DNA from: Rickettsia typhi
GTDB taxonomy: Bacteria; Pseudomonadota; Alphaproteobacteria; Rickettsiales; UBA1997
Direction of reading: 5' to 3'
Assembly: GCA_945862535.1 (NCBI GenBank)
Contig: CAMAYG010000001.1
Span: 18,731 to 82,730, forward strand
Length of the DNA: 64,000 bases
Shown piece after piece: positions 2,855-62,189 of the stretch. The notes under the pieces are model-generated. The model searched no databases, was not told where the DNA came from, and saw only the letters and a list, made by a program, of their open reading frames with translations. Within the stretch, counting starts at the first letter, position 1, and each line of letters starts with the position of its first letter. A program made the position numbers and the translations under genes.

Positions 2855-3703
2855 CTAATCTAGCTTAGGGTTTTTAACAAAAAACATTTCATTAGCATTT
2901 GATAAATCTTTGTTGAATTGGTAATTAAGATCGGAAAATTCTTTGATTTCTGCTATTTTTCTAATATTATTTAGTAATATAAACTTAATCATCGAGCCCC
3001 GTGCTTTCTTTGAATTTATGCCTATCGATGTTCTTTTTCCTTGCTTCTCTTCCTGAAAAACAATATTAATAATTTTGACATTATTGTTTTCTGTTATTAG
3101 TTCTCGATTTAAAGCCGAAGAATATTCGTTAGAAGCAAGGTTGATTATGGTTTCAGTTTCGCTTTCTAAGGCTTTCTTTCTAAAAAAACTTGCTAAATCT
3201 TTCTGCCAGAAATGATAAAGATTTTTTAATTCTTGTGCTTGAATCGTTGTTTTTTGTGAATCTAGGTTGTTAATAAAGTTTTTTTCGGCAAAATTTGTCG
3301 ACATTTCAAGCCTGTGCTCGATTATTAAATCTAGCGGTCTTAGAACTCCATATAAGCCAGACAAAATAAATAATTTTTCCTCGGCATTAGCTATTAGCTT
3401 TTTTTGAATTTTTAGATCTAGTTTTTTAATGGCAAGATTTTCATATAAATCGCCGTTAAAGGCAAATATCGCAGGCCTTTTATTGGCATTGTTAGAATGC
3501 CAATTTTCAAACCTATTTTTGTTTAAAGTCGCTAAATCATCACTAATTTTCATCAATCTAGCAATGTCTTGTTGGTTTAGATTATGCAAAAAGCCTAATA
3601 AAATTCGACTTCGATTATAAAAAACAGGTTCTTTTCCTAGGAATTCTAGCGATATATCGCTAGAGAAATCGAGTTTTTTTGCGGGAGATGTAATGATTAT
3701 CAT
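2855..3703 (-). CDS. yaaA: Peroxide stress protein YaaA (UPF0246/DUF328)
   Basis: 282 aa. MIIITSPAKKLDF start, LMKISD, AFNGDLY and LSGLYGVLRPLDLI..RLEM are colinear with E. coli YaaA. Confidence 0.85.
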   Translation of the reverse strand: MIIITSPAKKLDFSSDISLEFLGKEPVFYNRSRILLGFLHNLNQQDIARLMKISDDLATLNKNRFENWHSNNANKRPAIFAFNGDLYENLAIKKLDLKIQKKLIANAEEKLFILSGLYGVLRPLDLIIEHRLEMSTNFAEKNFINNLDSQKTTIQAQELKNLYHFWQKDLASFFRKKALESETETIINLASNEYSSALNRELITENNNVKIINIVFQEEKQGKRTSIGINSKKARGSMIKFILLNNIRKIAEIKEFSDLNYQFNKDLSNANEMFFVKNPKLD

Positions 3704-17360: not shown

Positions 17361-17665
17361 TCATTTATAGTTAAAAAACTATTGACAAATAAAATTCCCA
17401 ACTAAAATATTAGTGTAAATAGATTAAGATGATAATCAGATCTTTTACTAATAATACTCTTTTAATACCTTATTATTTTCTAAAAAAGCCTTATTTTCCA
17501 ATATCAATAAATATTGATATTGCATCAAAACTTCCGGTAGATGCTTATAAAAATACAAGGCATTAGATAGTGTTTTGATATTACTTTGATTTTGTTTTAA
17601 GATAATTGAATCGTTGCATAATAAGATACTCGCTAAAGCAACAAGACTATTTAGTAATGACACGA

Positions 17666-17694
17666 TTAATGATTTTTTAGATAAAAATCATTAA
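17666..17694. repeat. Perfect 12-bp inverted repeat (hairpin) in the fadE-rho spacer
   Basis: ttaatgattttt (17666-17677), loop tagat, aaaaatcattaa (17683-17694). Nearly all A/T and no flanking T-run on either strand. Confidence 0.5.
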
Positions 17695-18060
17695 AAAATA
17701 AAGTTGCATAACCGTAAAGCTAAGGCATAAAGTTAAGCTTAAAACTAGCTTATTATCTATTGAAAATAGTATAATAGCTTTATAAAAACCAAAACCCTTT
17801 TATTTTATTACCATTTTCTTAGATGTTTTTATTCTTAACAATCTTAATAATCTGAATATCAACTTTAATAATAATTAAATAGTTTGTAAAAATTAACCTT
17901 ACACTATTCCCAATAAATAACGACACTTTATGCAAAATATTTTCTGGTCGCGCCATGTAAAAGAAAGTATTTTTGAGATAAAAATAAATTTAAATGTGGG
18001 AAATAGAATTATATAATTTTAGTTTTATTTACCTAATTTTTAACCATAAACAAAACAATA

Positions 18061-20133
18061 ATGACCAATTCAAAAGAACCGATATCGAACATTGATAACC
18101 TTAAAGAAACTGTCAAAGACTTAGTCTTAGATGAGGTAGAGATTAAAACAAAGAAAAATAGCCAAACAGATTACCAGCCAGAAGAGGTTAAAGAGAAAAA
18201 AGAGGTGACACCAAGACAGCAAAGAACCCTAACATTGCAGAAAAAATCTAGCCTAGAAAATGCAAAAGAAGAAGTTAAAAATTTAAAAAATCATCGCACC
18301 GGAGGTGTTTTTGATCTTGTATTCAACTCAGCAGATCGTCAGAAATTCAATGCCGAAGAACATAATCATAGCTCGGAACTAGATTCAGATGATTTAAATA
18401 AATATAGCGAAGAAAATATTCACGAATTACAAAAAAATGAAAGAGCTAAACAAGTCTCTTTTGAAAAAATATCTTTTGTTAATAAGGCTTTACCGCCCAA
18501 GTCGCAAACATCAAAGGACTACCAATCTTCCGACACGGAAGATTATCCCCCTTTGCAATACCCTAAATACAGCAACAACAATCTTTTTAATTCTAATAAT
18601 TACCGCGAAAGAAATGCTTCTTACGAGGATAGAGAAGAGTACAAAAACACAAAACCCGCTTATTATAACAATCAAGCACCAGCAAGTCAAAACACTTACA
18701 ACAATAATGGTTTTGACAATTACCAAAATAACTCAATCGATAAATCTTTTAATCATCAAGGAGCAAATCAGATGTCTGGTCGTCAATTTATTGACGATGA
18801 GAACGAGGAGTTTATTGATAATTTAACGGCAAATAAAGCCAATTCCCCTAATGCAAAAACCCTAGAGCTAAAAGAACTAAAAATTCAAAAAGTTGAAGGA
18901 CTTATCGAAATTGCCTCAAAAGAATATGGCATTGAAAACATTGGTGATTTAGGTCGTCAAGATATAATATATTACATTCTTAAGAATTTCTCCGAGCAGA
19001 ATCCTCAAAATGTGATTATTGGTGAGGGTGTATTAGAGATACTTCCAGACGGTTTTGGGTTTTTAAGAGCTCCAGAAACCAACTATTTTGCTGGCTCAGA
19101 CGATATATATGTTTCGCCGAGTCAAATTAAAAGATTCGCTTTAAAAACTGGCGACACTGTTCAAGGGCAAATTCGAGCACCAAAAAAAGGAGAAAAATAT
19201 TTTGCCTTACTACGAGTTAATCAAGTTAACTTCGATAAACCCGAAAAAATAAAGTATAGGGCATTATTTGACGATCTTACCCCAATCCACCCAAATAAAA
19301 AACTAATTCTGGAAACTCAAAATATTCAAAACAGAAGTGCTGGTAATGACACAAGAATTATCGACATGATCTCTCCTCTTGGCAAAGGGCAAAGAGCATT
19401 GATTGTCGCTCCTCCAAAAACCGGAAAAACTTCCTTAATGCAAAATATTGCAAAAGTAGTCTTGGAAGAAAATCCCGAGGTTTATTTGATAGTCTTATTA
19501 ATAGATGAAAGACCAGAGGAAGTAACTGATATGAAAAGAACTGTAAAGGCAGAGGTTGTTAGTTCTACATTCGATGAGCCAGCTAGCAGACATGTTCAAT
19601 TAGCGGAAATGGTTATTGAAAAAGCTTGCAGATTAGTTGAGGCAAAAAAAGATGTTGTGATTCTGCTAGATTCTATAACAAGACTTGCTAGAGCCTATAA
19701 CACTGTAATTCCTTCTTCTGGTAAAGTTTTAACTGGCGGTGTCGATTCTAATGCCCTACAAAGACCAAAAAGATTCTTTGGTGCAGCTAGGAATATCGAG
19801 GAGGGCGGATCCTTAACAATAATTGCCACTGCATTAATTGACACTGGTTCAAAAATGGACGAGGTTATTTTTGAAGAGTTTAAAGGAACCGGCAATTCGG
19901 AAATTGTTCTTGATCGCAAAATATCAGATAAGAGAATTTATCCTGCTATCGACATTACAAAATCTGGAACTAGAAAAGAAGAATTGCTAATTGAAAGGGC
20001 AGAATTAGCAAAAATTTGGATGCTAAGAAGGATTGTCAATCAAATGAATCCTGTAGAGGCGATGGAATTTTTGTTAGCAAAAATCGAAGGAAGCAAAACA
20101 AATGAAGACTTCTTTAGATCGATGAATTCTTAA
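18061..20133 (+). CDS. rho: Transcription termination factor Rho with ~267-aa N-terminal low-complexity extension
   Basis: 690 aa. From about aa 268 it is colinear with E. coli Rho: L.ELK......L.......GIEN......[41 protein letters not shown], Walker [41 protein letters not shown]. The upstream 267 codons are stop-free in an AT-rich context. Confidence 0.95.
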
Positions 20134-21437: not shown

Positions 21438-24400
21438 ATGTCACCACTAAAACATTTCTCAATATTTCTCTTAAAAAGTTTTTCACAATTTCTACAAAGG
21501 CAATCATTAGTCCTCTTTTTACCTTTCTCGCTGTTGGTTGGAGTGTGTTTTTACTATTTTTGTAGCAAATGTTCTGCTGACCATCAGGGCAAAACACTAG
21601 AAATCTTATTATTTTCATCGCTTCTTTTAGCTGTTTTAGCTTTGTCGATATTAATTTTAAACAACAAGAAGGATTGTTACATAAATAACAATTTAGCGAT
21701 TATTAACTATTTAAAGCTCCATCTGTTGCTTTTTATATTTTTTATTGTTCTGTCTTTCCTCTACACATTGATTTTTAATCGCTACTTAGTTAAAAGAAAT
21801 ATTGTTGTTAACCAATATTTATACGGAAATATAATAGCTAAGGTTGTCGATATTAATCAATCTAAAGTCTTCGGCAACAAAAAAGAAAGTATATTTATTC
21901 TTACAGTTGATGGAGTGACTTTTTACCGCGAGCTAGATGGCTATTCGAACAATAATTTAAAGCTAAGTAGTGTCAAAAATCATAGACCAAATCCAAAAAT
22001 AAAGAGAAACAGCAATAAATTAGAAGCATCAAAAGCTTATTATAATCAGAAATTAGGCAACGAAATAAAAAAATGCACAGAGCAATATTTAAAATTTTCC
22101 AACGAGTTTCGGCTTTGCAAAAATAAAGCTCAAGAAAAAGTAGAAATAAACATAAAAATTAGCGAATTAAACAAGCAAATAATTGACTCAGAGCTAGAAA
22201 TTACAAAATTAGATCTTTCTTCCATTGATAGCAAAAACATAACCAGCACAACTCTCTCAAACAAGAAAAATCGACTGATACTCGATGTTAAAGAAAGGCA
22301 AGATAAAATCTTTAAACTACAATGGAATGTAAAAATACCAGCAAAATATCAAAAAATTATTAATCGTTGCGAAGAAAAAGAAGAAATTGATATAAATTGT
22401 GAAGATGATGCTTTTAACAGGTATTTACTAGAAAAACAACAAATCAAAACCAAGGGCAAAACCAAGGGCAAAACCAAAGGTAAATCAACTAATGAGCAAA
22501 GTAAAGAATCTGAAGATAACTTGCAAAACGAAGATGTTGATTTAAATAAAAATAACACAGAAGGCCGAAAATCAAACGAAATTAATGAAGAATGCTTGCC
22601 GGTAATAGAAAATTCTAATTTAGCAGAGAGAAATAATGATGCCGAAGAGGCTAATGAACCAGATCATAGCAAAACAAGCAACGAAGAGGTAGAAAATATT
22701 ATTAGTGACATTATTAATCGCTACCAAAAAGATAAAACCAATGCTATTTTCGCTAAAAATATCGCTAGATGTTTAAAATATCAACTCTCAACAGAGGTTA
22801 GAGAGTGCCATAAAAATATTGTAATAAATTTTAAAAATTGGCAAAATAGTAAAGACAAGAAAATTAAAGAAGCATTAGCTCAAAATAAAATAAAAAAAGA
22901 GCTAAAAATAAAAGAGAAAAACAAGATTTCGATGTTTAAAATGATGAATTATCACGAAATTGGCAATAATCTAGACTTGTGGCAAGATTACGATAGAAAA
23001 TTTGCTACTAACGAGCGTGACTACTTTAAGTTAAATTTTAACAACAATCTCTCTGTTAACGGTCCAAAGAAAATCAAATTAGCTTACAAAATCAACAGAT
23101 CAAACGAAGCAATGCCAAAAATTGGCGACATAATAACGGCAAAGGTTGAAATTAGCCCCGTTTCGGGTAAGAGATTTTTTGGCGACTTTAATTTTCGCCT
23201 TGATTCAATAGTAAAAGGAATTGATGCTAAGGGTAAGATTATTAGCAATATTTACATTAACAACAACATAATAAGCGATAAAAATAATTTATTTTATCAA
23301 ATAGTTGACGATTCTTTTAATTCTAAATTATCACAATTCGATTTATTTATAAAAAATTTACGACAAAGAATTTTAGCAGAAATAAACGATGTCGCCAATA
23401 AACACCAAAACATTTCAGGTTTAACAAATAACGAAGAGTTGGTAAATATGGTTGGAGCATTTCTAATTGGCATGCAAAACCTTATTAATCAAGACACTAT
23501 GGTTAAAATTCAAAAATCTGGACTTGCTCATCTTGTTTCTATTTCTGGCCTACATTTAACCTTAGCCGGCCTAATATTTTTCTATATCGCGCTAACTTTT
23601 TGTAGCTTTAGTCAAAAATTAATGCTTAATGTCAATATTCGTAAAATAGCAGCATTTTTTGCGATATTTTCGGCATTCTTCTATTTACAATTAGCTGGTA
23701 GTCCTTTGCCAGCGGTTCGTGCCTTTTTAACTAGTGGATTACTAATGCTTGCGATCATATTAGATCGCGAAGTTGTTGCAATTAGAATCGTTGCCTTAGC
23801 AATGGTTTTGTTAACAATATATAATCCAGCCAATATATTTAGTGTAAGCTTTCAGCTTTCTTTTATTGCCATTGCCTCGATAATCTCTTTTAATAATTTG
23901 TTTTTTAACTTTATTGAAAATAATAAATTTTACAATAATTTTAAGTTTACCGAATCTAATTTTGTTAAGATAATTATAAAAATCTTAAAAGCTTTTATTG
24001 CTATAGCAATCTCTTCTGTTGTTGCAACCTTATCAACAGCCCCGTTCACAATTTACCATTTTGGAGTTATTAATCCGTTAGGAATTATATCAAATTTCCT
24101 TGCAATTCCATTGGTTAGCTTTGTTACAATGCCGTTAATATTCATTTCGTTAATTTTTATAATTCTGAAGTTGGTAATATTGGAGACCGTTAACCTTAGC
24201 TTTATTATAGCTACTATCAATTTTTTGTTAAAATATTTATTATATTGGTCATTTATATCTATTGACTGGCTAATGTTTATCGTAAATAAAGTGAGCAATA
24301 TGCCATTTAACACAATAAAATTTTACCACATTAATCATTATATTTGGCTACTTTCAATTATTTTTTTGTATTTTGCAATTGCCATAACGGGAAGAGTTAG

Positions 24401-25022
24401 GGGGTTTTTTCTATTAGCTTTCTGCCTTTTGATGTCATTAATTTTTTATAATCGCCTAGATTCATTTGTGGCATTTAGCCATAATAGGCAGTTTTTTGCT
24501 TATTACTTGTTAAAAAATCAATCAATACTCAATAATGAGAAGTATTTAATTTTTTCCGATTTGCCAAAATCACAAAAAATGCAAGATTTATGGCTGAAAG
24601 ATTTTAGCTTAGCAGATAGCGATAATTTTAACATTATTAATTTAGGGTTAAAAAGTGGAGGTTACAGAATTAGCAACGATTTAAACAATGGGTTGTTAAG
24701 CAGTTCTGTAGTTAATTTGAAGTTAATTGAATGTTACCAAACTTATTGTGTTTTAAAAATGAAAAATAGCGAAAGTAGATTTATTTTGCCTTATTTTAAC
24801 ACAAAGCCCTTAGAAAATCATATAATGGTAATAATAAAACGAAGTAATGAAAAAGAGATATGCAAAACTCTCAATAAAGATAAATTAATCACAACGGTAG
24901 TTAATTTAACAGGAAAATATGCCATGCCAAGATGTGTAGGCGATATTAAACAAATTAGAAAAATTGTCGATAATAAAGATTTTAACGATCGAGAGTTTTA
25001 TTATACGACTGGTAGCGATTAA
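21438..25022 (+). CDS. comEC: ComEC/Rec2-family DNA internalization channel with a ~380-aa insertion in the N-terminal OB-fold (DUF4131) region; no C-terminal metallo-beta-lactamase motif
   Basis: 1194 aa. N-terminal TM helices, then OB-like strands (IIAKVVDINQSK..SIFILTVDG and, about 400 aa later, PKIGDIITAKVEISPVSGKRFFGDFNF). Competence-domain motif KSGLAHLVSISGLHLTLAG is followed by many TM helices. I saw no HxHxDH in the C-terminal ~250 aa. Confidence 0.85.
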   Translation: MSPLKHFSIFLLKSFSQFLQRQSLVLFLPFSLLVGVCFYYFCSKCSADHQGKTLEILLFSSLLLAVLALSILILNNKKDCYINNNLAIINYLKLHLLLFIFFIVLSFLYTLIFNRYLVKRNIVVNQYLYGNIIAKVVDINQSKVFGNKKESIFILTVDGVTFYRELDGYSNNNLKLSSVKNHRPNPKIKRNSNKLEASKAYYNQKLGNEIKKCTEQYLKFSNEFRLCKNKAQEKVEINIKISELNKQIIDSELEITKLDLSSIDSKNITSTTLSNKKNRLILDVKERQDKIFKLQWNVKIPAKYQKIINRCEEKEEIDINCEDDAFNRYLLEKQQIKTKGKTKGKTKGKSTNEQSKESEDNLQNEDVDLNKNNTEGRKSNEINEECLPVIENSNLAERNNDAEEANEPDHSKTSNEEVENIISDIINRYQKDKTNAIFAKNIARCLKYQLSTEVRECHKNIVINFKNWQNSKDKKIKEALAQNKIKKELKIKEKNKISMFKMMNYHEIGNNLDLWQDYDRKFATNERDYFKLNFNNNLSVNGPKKIKLAYKINRSNEAMPKIGDIITAKVEISPVSGKRFFGDFNFRLDSIVKGIDAKGKIISNIYINNNIISDKNNLFYQIVDDSFNSKLSQFDLFIKNLRQRILAEINDVANKHQNISGLTNNEELVNMVGAFLIGMQNLINQDTMVKIQKSGLAHLVSISGLHLTLAGLIFFYIALTFCSFSQKLMLNVNIRKIAAFFAIFSAFFYLQLAGSPLPAVRAFLTSGLLMLAIILDREVVAIRIVALAMVLLTIYNPANIFSVSFQLSFIAIASIISFNNLFFNFIENNKFYNNFKFTESNFVKIIIKILKAFIAIAISSVVATLSTAPFTIYHFGVINPLGIISNFLAIPLVSFVTMPLIFISLIFIILKLVILETVNLSFIIATINFLLKYLLYWSFISIDWLMFIVNKVSNMPFNTIKFYHINHYIWLLSIIFLYFAIAITGRVRGFFLLAFCLLMSLIFYNRLDSFVAFSHNRQFFAYYLLKNQSILNNEKYLIFSDLPKSQKMQDLWLKDFSLADSDNFNIINLGLKSGGYRISNDLNNGLLSSSVVNLKLIECYQTYCVLKMKNSESRFILPYFNTKPLENHIMVIIKRSNEKEICKTLNKDKLITTVVNLTGKYAMPRCVGDIKQIRKIVDNKDFNDREFYYTTGSD
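22446..22481. repeat. In-frame 12-bp x3 tandem repeat inside the comEC insertion
   Basis: aaaaccaagggc / aaaaccaagggc / aaaaccaaaggt at 22446, 22458 and 22470. It encodes KTKG KTKG KTKG. Confidence 0.85.
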
Positions 25023-26091: not shown

Positions 26092-26694
26092 TTAGTTTGT
26101 TAGTTTAAATTGAACCGGGATTAGAAATTGACGAGCTTTAATGTTTTCAATATTCAAAATCCATTTTTTAACACCAGATAATGCACTGCGATCTAAAATA
26201 TTATAGCCACTTGATTTTTCTAGCTTGGCATCGGTAATATTGCCTTTTTCGTTAACCTTAACAACAATAATCACCTCTCCCTCGAGTTGCTGACTTACCG
26301 CCTCTTCTGGATATTGCGGATTTGGATTAAAATGATATTTTGGATTACTGCTAATTTGTTGCTGATTATTTGCAAAATTATCTATTTGCGCTTCTTTTGG
26401 TTTATTTTGATTGCCTTGAGCGAGGCTATTTGGTTGGTTGTTATGTTTTTCGATTGTAGTTTTGCTTTCTATATAGCTTGTCTTGAAATATGAAACAGAG
26501 ATAGAATTTGGTTTTTTATTATTATATGCTTCTGTGGTTAAATTTTTTAACGGACTTAATAAAAAAATTATCATCGGAATAATGTGCAGCAGAACAACAA
26601 AAGGCAGTGATTTTATGCCAGAATCTTGAGTTGGACTAGGGCGGAATATAGGGTAGAATATGTTATCTAAACTGCCATTTGAACTGTATTTCAT
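26092..26694 (-). CDS. tonB: Energy transducer TonB-family protein
   Basis: 200 aa with an N-terminal TM anchor and an N/Q/P-rich linker. The C-terminal TonB_C pattern is P.YPEEA......EG.V...V.V...G.....K...SSGY..LD..AL..VKKW. It abuts exbB with no gap. Confidence 0.8.
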   Translation of the reverse strand: MKYSSNGSLDNIFYPIFRPSPTQDSGIKSLPFVVLLHIIPMIIFLLSPLKNLTTEAYNNKKPNSISVSYFKTSYIESKTTIEKHNNQPNSLAQGNQNKPKEAQIDNFANNQQQISSNPKYHFNPNPQYPEEAVSQQLEGEVIIVVKVNEKGNITDAKLEKSSGYNILDRSALSGVKKWILNIENIKARQFLIPVQFKLTN

Positions 26695-60953: not shown

Positions 60954-62189
60954 ATGGACGATTTTGGCTACCAAAAAACTAGTAAAAAATTAACAGCTAA
61001 AATCAATTATCGCCGATACCTAGTCTTGATTTTATTAATAATTTCTATCGCAGGCTTTTTGGTTATTGCTGGTGAGGCATATTACTTAAGTATTTTTAAA
61101 GATAATAAAAAAGTCATAACAATACTTCCGCCCTCTGGCCCGCTGAAAGTAGCTAACAATCAACAGCACAATGAATTAGAAAATGTTAACACTAGCGCGG
61201 TTTACGAAGAAATTTTTGGAGATCGTAAAGTTGACGAAGAAATAGGCAAAACCGTTGTAATTACTCAACCAGAACCCCCTTCCCCAGCTAAAAACATCCC
61301 GTTAACAGAGGGTTATCTTGCTAAAGAAGATGATTTAGAACAGCAAATAGGTTATACAGAGACGGTTTCAAAAACAACAAATAACAACTTAAAAATAACA
61401 AATATTTCAGCAAAAGAAATAATCGATCCTAAAAAAGACAACAAACCTAATAACAAAGATATAACAAAAAATTCCAGTAAAAACCCTGAAAAAGATAATG
61501 AAAAACATAGTGAAAAACATGATTCAAGAAACTTGGAACCAGCTATTAGTAAGCTTGAGAACAAAGTTAAAGACCAAAGTTTGCTTTTCCACCTAAATCA
61601 ACCACCAAGCAAGTCGCAAATCATAACCCCAATTTTACAACATAATAAAAAAGACGAAAAAGGCGAAAAAGGCGAAAAAAATCAATCAGGGCAAAATGAA
61701 GAAACGGTAAAGTTAAAGCAACAATCAAAGAAAGATGAAGATTTAGAAGAATCGAAGAAGAATTTACTGGTGCCAAAAAACAACAGTGGCGGTATAATTA
61801 TTTTTAACGAGCAAAACAAAGCTAAGAACAAAGAGATACTAATTTTAGACAACAGAAATCAAAAACCAATAAAATCTCAGCAAAATCAAAAAGAAGATCT
61901 TCAAAACAAACAAAACGACAAAAAATCTAAGAGAATGATGGTGCAAATTGCCGCAATGTCTTCTAAATCTAATACCGAGAAGATGTGGAAGCAAATTAGC
62001 AAGAATAATCCAAAATTTTTCAAAGGTCTTTCTTATAAAATTGAAGAAGTAAATTTGGGCTCAAAGGGATTATTTTATCGATTAAAAGTTGGATCTTTCG
62101 CCAATCAAATCGAGGCAGAAAAATTCTGTAACAAATATTTAGCTAGCAGTAACAAAAAGAGCAATTCGGATTGCTTGATGGTAGAGTAA
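60954..62189 (+). CDS. SPOR-domain protein (TM anchor, long K/N/E/Q-rich linker, C-terminal SPOR)
   Basis: 411 aa. TM helix YLVLILLIISIAGFLVIAG. C-terminal SPOR pattern: VQIAAMSS...........K....F......I.........YRLKVG.F.....A..FC. The argS-SPOR gene pair is common in alphaproteobacteria. Confidence 0.8.
   Translation: MDDFGYQKTSKKLTAKINYRRYLVLILLIISIAGFLVIAGEAYYLSIFKDNKKVITILPPSGPLKVANNQQHNELENVNTSAVYEEIFGDRKVDEEIGKTVVITQPEPPSPAKNIPLTEGYLAKEDDLEQQIGYTETVSKTTNNNLKITNISAKEIIDPKKDNKPNNKDITKNSSKNPEKDNEKHSEKHDSRNLEPAISKLENKVKDQSLLFHLNQPPSKSQIITPILQHNKKDEKGEKGEKNQSGQNEETVKLKQQSKKDEDLEESKKNLLVPKNNSGGIIIFNEQNKAKNKEILILDNRNQKPIKSQQNQKEDLQNKQNDKKSKRMMVQIAAMSSKSNTEKMWKQISKNNPKFFKGLSYKIEEVNLGSKGLFYRLKVGSFANQIEAEKFCNKYLASSNKKSNSDCLMVE
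61653..61679. repeat. In-frame 9-bp x3 tandem repeat inside the SPOR-protein linker
   Basis: gacgaaaaa / ggcgaaaaa / ggcgaaaaa at 61653, 61662 and 61671. It encodes DEK GEK GEK. Confidence 0.8.

Follow-up and report, generated by a model that had tools for sequence, protein, structure and literature searches.

What kind of sequence precedes Rho, the transcription termination factor, in a low-GC (guanine plus cytosine) alphaproteobacterial genome, and does it behave as a prion-like domain? The question is raised by a 64,000-nucleotide (nt) stretch of DNA, hereafter the window (positions 18,731 to 82,730 of contig CAMAYG010000001.1, assembly GCA_945862535.1, deposited as Rickettsia typhi), in which the rho gene occupies positions 18061 to 20133 of the forward strand. 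In the list of open reading frames (ORFs) the gene starts with ATG and comprises 690 codons plus a stop, and the closest in-frame stop upstream of this ATG lies at 18034. A preliminary description had proposed that a long N-terminal extension precedes the canonical Rho sequence, that it is translated, and that part of it is prion-like. Our analysis indicates that the gene probably encodes a functional Rho carrying a translated, constrained and disordered initial region of the class called Type 2a. Tails of this sort are found at the N-terminus throughout an alphaproteobacterial clade, and judged by sequence the present one would be the longest in the set of nearest relatives. That the tail acts specifically through condensate formation or autoinhibition is a tentative proposal, and a heritable amyloid prion switch is a less likely mode.

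The C-terminal part of the protein carries the features of a complete Rho. It matched the NCBIfam Rho equivalog TIGR00767 over amino acids (aa) 270–689 with 667.1 bits (cut-off 509.45) and NF006886 with 663 bits, and all three Pfam core domains exceeded their cut-offs: the N-terminal helix bundle Rho_N (PF07498, aa 272–314, 18874–19002, 28.2 bits, above its cut-off of 24.9), the cold-shock-domain-like (CSD-like) Rho RNA-binding domain (PF07497, aa 322–395, 19024–19245, 114 bits) and the RecA-type ATPase domain (PF00006, aa 432–635, 19354–19965, 102 bits), all on the + strand, as are the other features of the gene given below. The Walker A stretch APPKTGKT and the other catalytic stretches align with those of E. 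coli Rho. By these sequence matches the protein belongs to the transcription termination factor Rho family (TIGR00767 / PRK09376), with the three core domains at full length. A PDB search aligned aa 269–688 with E. coli Rho (E-value 1.8e-174, a 65%-type match). As residue 269 was paired with E. coli residue 2, the extension amounts to 267 residues (aa 1–267, 18061–18861), exactly where the preliminary description had placed it. Pfam and NCBIfam scans matched nothing in the extension, the Pfam result being empty over aa 1–268. Moreira et al. (2024, PMC11347177) define Type 2a Rho by an "initial region" of more than 25 aa ahead of Rho_N. The gap between Rho_N and the RNA-binding domain is only 7 aa here, leaving no insertion of more than 25 aa, so that the protein is neither Type 2b nor Type 2c; with its initial region, a detectable Rho_N, an RNA-binding domain and an ATPase, it classifies by sequence as Type 2a.

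The uninterrupted frame of the extension is unlikely to be a matter of chance, as none of 20,000 mononucleotide shuffles of its 801 nt was free of stops, and the other five frames hold 11–37 stops. The GC fraction is 0.34 across both the extension and the rest of the ORF, compared with 0.22–0.25 in the upstream intergenic DNA; the genome as a whole has 32% GC. A codon log-odds score was trained on the window's 47 remaining long ORFs. In frame 0 it gave 0.16–0.38 per codon in every segment of the extension, including aa 1–48, against 0.16–0.39 for the training genes, and it was negative in both other frames of the extension and in the upstream DNA.

Selection on the encoded protein was assessed against a syntenic locus of a relative (L001, gene order ACAD-rho-argJ-comEC), whose Rho (P0003) is 92% identical. 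Over the extension, the proportions of synonymous and nonsynonymous differences were about 0.36 (pS) and about 0.08 (pN), corresponding to a ratio of nonsynonymous to synonymous substitution rates (dN/dS) of 0.19 at a dS of 0.43. The ratio was 0.10–0.14 in the N/Q/Y-rich part (0.14 for aa 165–240), 0.25 for aa 1–48 and 0.008 for the Rho core. For the same pair of genomes, ArgJ gave 0.07, ACAD 0.066 and a low-complexity insert in ComEC 0.36. The sole indel in the extension relative to L001 is 12 nt long and in frame. In five close full-length relatives (683–690 aa) the frame is intact, indels are in frame only, and the MTNSKEP start is kept.

The context of the start codon is in keeping with this picture. 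In 46 of the 48 long ORFs of the window no Shine-Dalgarno (SD) site is present within 20 nt of the start, which places such sites at or below random expectation, and window starts sit in an A/C-rich, G-poor context such as AACAAAACAATA-ATG; the context of Met1 is typical and is conserved in L001. These observations suggest SD-independent initiation in the source genome, and since the genome hardly uses SD sites, their absence at Met1 is uninformative. No rRNA gene, and hence no 16S rRNA 3' end, is present in the window. An alternative start at GTG49, which would set TLTL near the N-terminus as in relatives, was considered and rejected because aa 1–48 show a dN/dS of 0.25 and gene-like codons, and the MTNSKEP start is conserved in the five relatives. 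On the combined evidence of coding potential, substitution pattern, five intact relatives and a conserved, typical start context, the extension appears to be translated from the ATG at 18061 as part of Rho, as the preliminary description had argued, and the annotation would be right, with Met1 placed from the sequence and the relatives.

The extension is composed of two halves whose earlier description was borne out. The K/E/D-rich half (aa 1–147, 18061–18501) has a charged fraction of 0.34–0.41, with 13.6% K, 13.6% E and 6.4% D over aa 1–140. The N/Q/Y-rich segment (aa 148–240, 18502–18780) contains 29% N+Q and 11 Tyr among its 93 residues at a charged fraction of 0.20, and aa 150–240 consist of 20.9% N, 12.1% Y, 11.0% S and 7.7% Q. 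Against a background of the proteins encoded in the same window, the N+Q+Y bias of aa 165–224 reached a binomial P of 6e-11. The N+Q background is itself high, with Asn making up 7.8% of residues and other window proteins reaching 20–24 N+Q per 80 residues versus 26 in Rho. Because N/Q stretches are common in this AT-rich proteome, N/Q richness alone is weakened as a signal and barely tops the local background; it is the Tyr enrichment and the combined bias that stand out. The 14 aromatic residues of aa 148–240 are spaced more evenly than random (gap standard deviation 2.72, P = 0.002, for a segment whose limits were picked after inspecting the sequence), and 9 of 10 Phe positions and 10 of 13 Tyr positions are invariant among the five close relatives. 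Searches of the extension DNA for tandem and direct repeats found none, and no slippage signature was seen. A C-over-G skew at nt 18400–18850 was considered as the mark of a Rho utilization (Rut) site in the mRNA and rejected as an independent signal: the N/Q/Y-rich peptide, which is itself under protein-level selection, produces the skew through its AAY, CAR and TAY codons.

The extension is probably intrinsically disordered according to structure and folding predictions. In an AlphaFold2 (AF2) model of the window Rho, aa 1–261 lack secondary structure and stay below 50 in the predicted local distance difference test (pLDDT) score, the model being weak overall (mean pLDDT 49.8); the same holds for aa 1–58 of a relative with a short tail, in a model of mean pLDDT 59.2 that is also weak. 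The mean FoldIndex value was -0.26 for the extension versus +0.10 for the core.

Conservation within the extension is uneven. Its least conserved stretch is aa 1–54, which is lineage-specific and has an invariance of 0.48 among the five close relatives. It is followed by RTLTLQKK (aa 55–62, 18223–18246), 100% invariant in the five relatives, and by a conserved block at aa 73–96 (18277–18348, invariance 0.79) that is shared with the sub-clade motif SGIFENIISNSQ of the relatives P0038 and P0119. Within the N/Q/Y-rich segment, aa 162–186 (18544–18618) have an invariance of 0.84 among the five relatives and are the probable counterpart of the clade motif PRLHTGNLISRGN. An acidic patch at aa 241–259 (18781–18837) shows zero substitutions among the five relatives, the enclosing aa 241–268 having an invariance of 0.89, and aa 241–260 carry a net charge of -4.

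Comparison with related Rho proteins, which the preliminary description had proposed as a means of dating the extension, placed it in a wider context. N-terminal tails of 30–268 aa (median about 130, N+Q 14–36%) are present in all 120 nearest Rho proteins, on cores of about 80% identity, and the five close relatives are free of frameshifts and stops. The few source labels among the 120 are Alphaproteobacteria, Rickettsiales or Pseudomonadota metagenome-assembled genomes (MAGs), one of them on a 1.2-Mb contig. The window tail is the longest among the nearest relatives and among the richest in Tyr. By this comparison, an N-terminal tail is a trait of the clade and not peculiar to the source genome. 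In a scan of a genome collection with the full protein, the Rho proteins among the matches listed were all at most 68% identical, and those of Sphingomonadaceae, Caulobacterales and Ca. Enterousia, alphaproteobacteria that lie outside the clade, again among the matches listed, have canonical Rho starts without an extension.

Three short motifs in a fixed order are common to the tails of the clade. MSS(x)TLTLRYG stands at the extreme N-terminus, PRLHTGNLISRG is internal, and a DDE(E/D)D patch, acidic in character, lies about 15–25 residues ahead of KTLELK, where Rho_N begins. Of about 60 diverse relatives, nearly all have TLTLRYG, RLHTGNLISRG and the acidic patch, and the spacers between them vary freely in length and in their N/Q/S-rich sequence. 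In a MAFFT alignment of 61 Rho proteins, L57-T58-L59 of the window protein fall in columns that are at least 90% conserved, making RTLTLQKK the putative counterpart of TLTLRYG; aa 167–179 align with xRLHTG-NLISRGN, with L175 in a column that is at least 90% conserved; and aa 243–253 fall on an acidic patch present in every one of the 61 sequences, which is the DDE(E/D)D patch lying ahead of Rho_N in all relatives. The motif counterparts are the most invariant blocks of the window tail among the five close relatives. An exhaustive hidden Markov model (HMM) search of 1.84 billion representative proteins with the motif profile returned only 10 short Rho N-terminal fragments, from a database of 50%-identity cluster representatives that hides full-length members of the clade. 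No non-Rho family carrying the motifs was found there, and from these profile matches the module looks specific to Rho. Word-indexed searches gave 7 fragments for the N-terminal profile and none for the extension alone, and as they missed the query's own protein they do not inform on distribution; a metagenome scan with the extension produced 285 pattern matches, of which 0 were confirmed.

The prion-like label fared less well than the claim of translation. The maximum N+Q count is 26 per 80 residues (aa 163–242), below the criterion of Michelitsch and Weissman of at least 30 Q/N per 80 residues; Sup35 and Ure2 both reach 38, and 21 of the 120 relatives pass. PAPA, in a re-implementation of papa.py with a threshold of 0.05 within a FoldIndex-disordered region, gave a best score of -0.076 (aa 224), compared with 0.10 for Sup35 and 0.117 for Ure2 using the same code. 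An approximate PLAAC-style log-odds score over 60 residues, calculated from prion-domain frequencies, was weakly positive at 20.5, versus 32 for Ure2 and 84.5 for Sup35, with no other window protein above 8.2; it ranks 38th among the 120 relatives. For the Rho of Clostridium botulinum (Cb-Rho) a PLAAC core score of about 42 has been reported (bioRxiv 10.1101/2022.05.30.493841). The N/Q/Y segment has a charged fraction of about 0.19 and includes 5 prolines, bona fide prion domains being 0–10% charged, and it contains no uncharged N-run comparable to NNNNSNFNNNSNNNSSFNNSN of Cb-Rho. The segment thus falls short on two of the testable criteria for a Cb-type prion domain, PAPA and the N/Q count. 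The preliminary description had itself named prion scores at background level as what would speak against its label, and by that measure the label is close to refuted; it is weak and should not be propagated without experiments.

Nor is the terminal position of the extension a novelty in comparison with internal insertions, as had been suggested. In their survey of 2730 genomes, Moreira, Chyou, Wade and Brown (Nucleic Acids Research 2024, PMC11347177) found initial regions in 18.7% of Rho proteins, with lengths of up to 352 aa. These were, by prediction, disordered and droplet-promoting, which is typical of the class without being strictly required, and were PLAAC-positive in 16.7% of 25-residue windows. 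One of them, 214 aa long and belonging to Xanthomonas oryzae Rho, has a 95-residue QN-rich, PLAAC-positive segment, and transcription termination has been reported for Type 2a Rho of Xanthomonas (PMC11347177). The window protein resembles it in having a region of more than 25 aa before Rho_N, in its proteobacterial origin, its predicted disorder, a partly QN-rich composition and three intact core domains. It differs in that its lineage belongs to low-GC Alphaproteobacteria as opposed to Xanthomonadales, and its Tyr-rich, mixed-charge tail is unlike the Xanthomonas initial region; the two tails are probably of independent origin. Appendages are absent from most Rho proteins of Proteobacteria (PMC10284900, PMC11347177), and in Pseudomonadota 85 of 1045 species have Type 2 Rho and no other type (PMC11347177). 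Four motifs have been published for additional regions of Rho, namely APA, QN, RxR and EDDV (PMC11347177), a set that excludes the TLTLRYG, LHTGNLISRG and acidic patch of the window clade. No description of these three was found in a literature search that did not extend to the supplementary data of Moreira et al. (2024).

Further comparisons are offered by Rho proteins with internal insertions. The intrinsically disordered region (IDR) of Bacteroides thetaiotaomicron Rho is described as E/K-rich and Q/N-rich around a small conserved element (PMC10284900). It is inserted, with a length of 309 aa, after the helix bundle and before the CSD-like domain, and it phase-separates on starvation, as demonstrated experimentally by Krypotou et al. 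(2023) (insertion and phase separation as given in PMC10284900, PMC11347177 and PMC12360218). Measured against that account, the window protein likewise has a long IDR on the N-terminal, RNA-binding half, with a K/E/D-rich part (aa 1–147), an N/Q/Y-rich part (aa 148–240) and conserved short blocks, so that the two agree in composition, and their positions on the outer crown of the hexamer are expected to be close. They disagree in that the window IDR precedes Rho_N, and there is no sequence similarity; of the two, condensation is known only for the B. thetaiotaomicron protein. The insertion in Cb-Rho is internal, and its uncharged, 67%-Asn core is PAPA- and pWALTZ-positive and forms amyloid (Pallares et al. 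2016, PMC4703818), and its prion behaviour is cited as shown (Yuan and Hochschild 2017, as summarized in PMC11347177). An Asn-rich disordered segment N-terminal to the Rho RNA-binding domain is common to both proteins, but the window segment has only 21% Asn, is 19% charged, and is PAPA-negative with a subcriterion N/Q count. The Rho IDRs of Lachnospiraceae, (YQSRGD)x14 in Clostridium symbiosum and (RNYQD)x5 in Blautia obeum (Schumbera et al. 2023, PMC10284900), combine Tyr, Asn/Gln and charged residues in a manner resembling the window (e.g. NYQNNS), with regularly spaced Tyr. They are, however, exact tandem repeats, internal and from Firmicutes, whereas the window tail is N-terminal and has no DNA repeats.

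The tail is modular, with short linear motifs (TLTL, NL[IF][SN] and the acidic, DDE-rich patch by the helix bundle) separated by polar low-complexity spacers, which have expanded in the window lineage into the K/E/D-rich half and the N/Q/Y-rich half with its evenly spaced aromatics. These features can be assembled into a tentative model. The hexamer crown would bear six such tails, close to the primary RNA-binding sites, where they could tune RNA loading and self-association by weak multivalent contacts. Aromatic and Asn "stickers" may favour reversible clustering or condensation, and the acidic patch might transiently shield the basic RNA-binding surface. We infer that the evenly spaced aromatics fit a sticker-and-spacer disordered tail better than a prion. 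Even aromatic spacing of this kind, in what Martin and co-workers reportedly described in 2020, is a sticker-and-spacer feature tied to liquid condensates rather than to solid aggregates. A more far-reaching version, which we regard as speculative and doubtful, is that the three clade motifs constitute an undescribed, sequence-specific regulatory module of Rho, either an autoinhibitory pseudo-substrate or a partner-docking tether, and that the window tail is an expansion of it adding a Tyr/Asn sticker region for reversible condensation. If true, this module would differ from the purely composition-driven Rho IDRs described so far.

Several points weigh against this interpretation as a whole. 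Met1 is placed by inference. Both AF2 models are weak and their alignments shallow, making low pLDDT soft evidence of disorder, and in the monomers of the window Rho and of the short-tail relative the motifs do not dock on the core, which leaves the autoinhibition idea without structural support. The equivalence of the motifs depends on MAFFT alignment of short motifs in low-complexity sequence, so that their homology is unproven, and the second motif has two candidate counterparts, aa 78–92 and aa 167–179. The charged fraction of the tail, 0.19–0.41, lies above that of classical prion-like low-complexity domains, and the aromatic spacing applies to a segment delimited after the fact.

Other explanations account for part of the same evidence. 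Were the N/Q/Y segment a true prion-forming domain, a self-propagating amyloid form of Rho would lower termination genome-wide, as for C. botulinum Rho. The N/Q/Y bias (P = 6e-11) and an approximate PLAAC-style score of 20.5 where other window proteins reach at most 8.2 are what such a domain would lead one to expect; the segment lies in a disordered region adjoining the RNA-binding module, a topology like that of Cb-Rho (PMC4703818), and of the bacterial prion candidates with a helicase-activity annotation, Rho is the most frequent (bioRxiv 10.1101/2022.05.30.493841). Yet PAPA rejects the segment while passing the Sup35 and Ure2 controls, the 26 N+Q per 80 residues fall short of 30 where the yeast controls have 38, and a charged fraction of 0.19 with 5 prolines compares with no charged residues in the 67%-Asn core of Cb-Rho and with 0.04–0.10 in yeast prion domains. 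An uncharged N-run like NNNNSNFNNNSNNNSSFNNSN is missing from the segment, its even aromatic spacing is associated with liquid and not solid assemblies, and its sequence is itself conserved (dN/dS 0.10–0.14), an uncommon trait in composition-driven prion domains. A QN motif, as Moreira et al. note, is not enough for prion behaviour, and B. fragilis Rho did not aggregate (PMC11347177). A prion function is on this evidence highly improbable. Very improbable, too, is a start at Met238 giving a 453-aa, near-canonical Rho, alone or as a second isoform beside the 690-aa form. Met238 (ATG at 18772) is the sole internal ATG of the extension, and the AAGGAG-N8-ATG at 18758–18774 is an SD-like candidate for an internal start, the only strong one at candidate starts in the window; its 6-mer and spacing occur at 0.5% of random positions, L001 retains the site, all five relatives keep Met238, and gene callers picked shortened starts in some relatives (P0007, P0012). 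The 237 preceding codons nevertheless show purifying selection at the protein level, gene-like codon usage and in-frame indels only, which excludes a short-only product. The SD-like hexamer is of doubtful meaning in a window where 46 of 48 genes lack SD sites, it is dictated by the conserved residues Q-G-A, and the promoter scan found no + strand promoter-like site within the extension.

The tail could instead be a tether that docks through its motifs on one specific partner, be it RNA polymerase, NusG/NusA, a protease, a chaperone or the Rho ring itself, with the spacers as mere filler following the AT-rich genome. This account, which overlaps the modular, self-associating tail preferred here and does not exclude it, draws on the recurrence of the three motifs in about 60 relatives whose spacers vary freely (tails of 30–268 aa), on the invariance of the motif counterparts in the window lineage, on the Rho-specific motif profile, and on the N-rich low complexity seen in other proteins of the genome too. 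It is less easily reconciled with the constraint on the spacers in the window lineage (one 17-residue stretch has an invariance of 0.78, and dN/dS is 0.14 over aa 165–240); AF2 monomers give no confident motif structure or docking, and the partner is hypothetical. We consider it possible, though clearly short of probable. A simpler proposal is that the extension is a near-neutral by-product of AT-biased mutation and low-complexity expansion, tolerated at a solvent-exposed N-terminus and lacking a function of its own. The 32% GC of the genome and its 7.8% Asn, the approximately 380-aa K/E/N-rich insert in ComEC, the 20–24 N+Q per 80 residues of several other window proteins and the spread of tail lengths from 30 to 268 aa among relatives would all be expected under it. 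Against this stand a dN/dS of 0.10–0.25 throughout the tail, below the 0.36 of the ComEC insert and approaching the enzymes (0.07), the lack of DNA repeats or slippage signatures, the clade-wide conservation of the motifs and the non-random aromatic spacing, and we judge it improbable.

Rho is a global transcription terminator, and appendages next to its primary RNA-binding sites are known to alter its choice of RNAs and the timing of its action, as with condensation in Bacteroides, the prion switch in Clostridium and the selection of Rut sites in Mycobacterium. Here a whole clade of low-GC, small-genome Alphaproteobacteria carries such an appendage at the extreme N-terminus, under purifying selection and with conserved short motifs. 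The class is already known, and what is mildly new is a clade-wide, motif-bearing, constrained tail in low-GC Alphaproteobacteria, together with its extreme length and Tyr content in the window lineage. With tails of 30–268 aa on cores that are about 80% identical, the clade provides a compact natural series for probing the effect of an N-terminal IDR on Rho.

Upstream of the gene, a 700-nt intergenic region (17361–18060, +), the presumed rho leader, has a GC fraction of 0.22–0.25 and a negative coding score in all frames. It is 88% identical to L001 (Jukes-Cantor distance about 0.13), compared with a dS of 0.29–0.45 in the flanking genes. Evolving several-fold more slowly than synonymous sites, the leader may be a constrained regulatory one, as this comparison suggests. 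Autoregulation of Rho through its own leader is known in other bacteria. An antisense ORF of 71 aa lies within the leader (17448–17663), and one assembly annotates it as a gene. A promoter-like site at 17989–18017 upstream of rho is a consensus match only. The best promoter-like match of the region is antisense and inside the N/Q/Y-coding part (18662–18690, - strand): TTGACT, 17 nt and TATAAT, 11/12, with an extended -10 TG. The counts of the promoter and terminator scan equal the shuffle background, so that the antisense match may be due to chance in AT-rich DNA.

Extended Rho proteins were also observed at two other loci. In a MAG labelled Rickettsia typhi, a label that looks doubtful (L072, contig CAMDIK010000010.1), the Rho ORF runs 168 codons upstream of position 3001. 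Its tail combines a run rich in Asn, His and Arg, HHNRRNNNRNNNNHHRNNHSNNNANN, with an acidic patch and with KKISLKIPQKK, a sequence similar to RTLTLQKK of the window. In the zetaproteobacterium Mariprofundus micogutta (L036), a Rho extension of about 189 aa upstream of position 3001 includes three AT-hook-like repeats, PRPRGRPRKVEKE, PRRRGRPRKADKE and PRRRVRPKKTD; it is arginine-rich and represents a different kind of initial region.

Elsewhere in the window, ComEC (21438–25022, 1194 aa) contains the K/E/N-rich insert mentioned above (aa 141–520, 21858–22997) ahead of its Competence domain (Pfam, aa 676–983). Its dN/dS of 0.36 relative to L001 is accompanied by a length-variable KTKGKTKGKTKGK repeat, and the insert demonstrates that long low-complexity inserts are not confined to Rho in the source genome. 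A SPOR-domain protein (60954–62189, 411 aa) and a 200-aa ORF (26092–26694) each have 24 N+Q in 80 residues.

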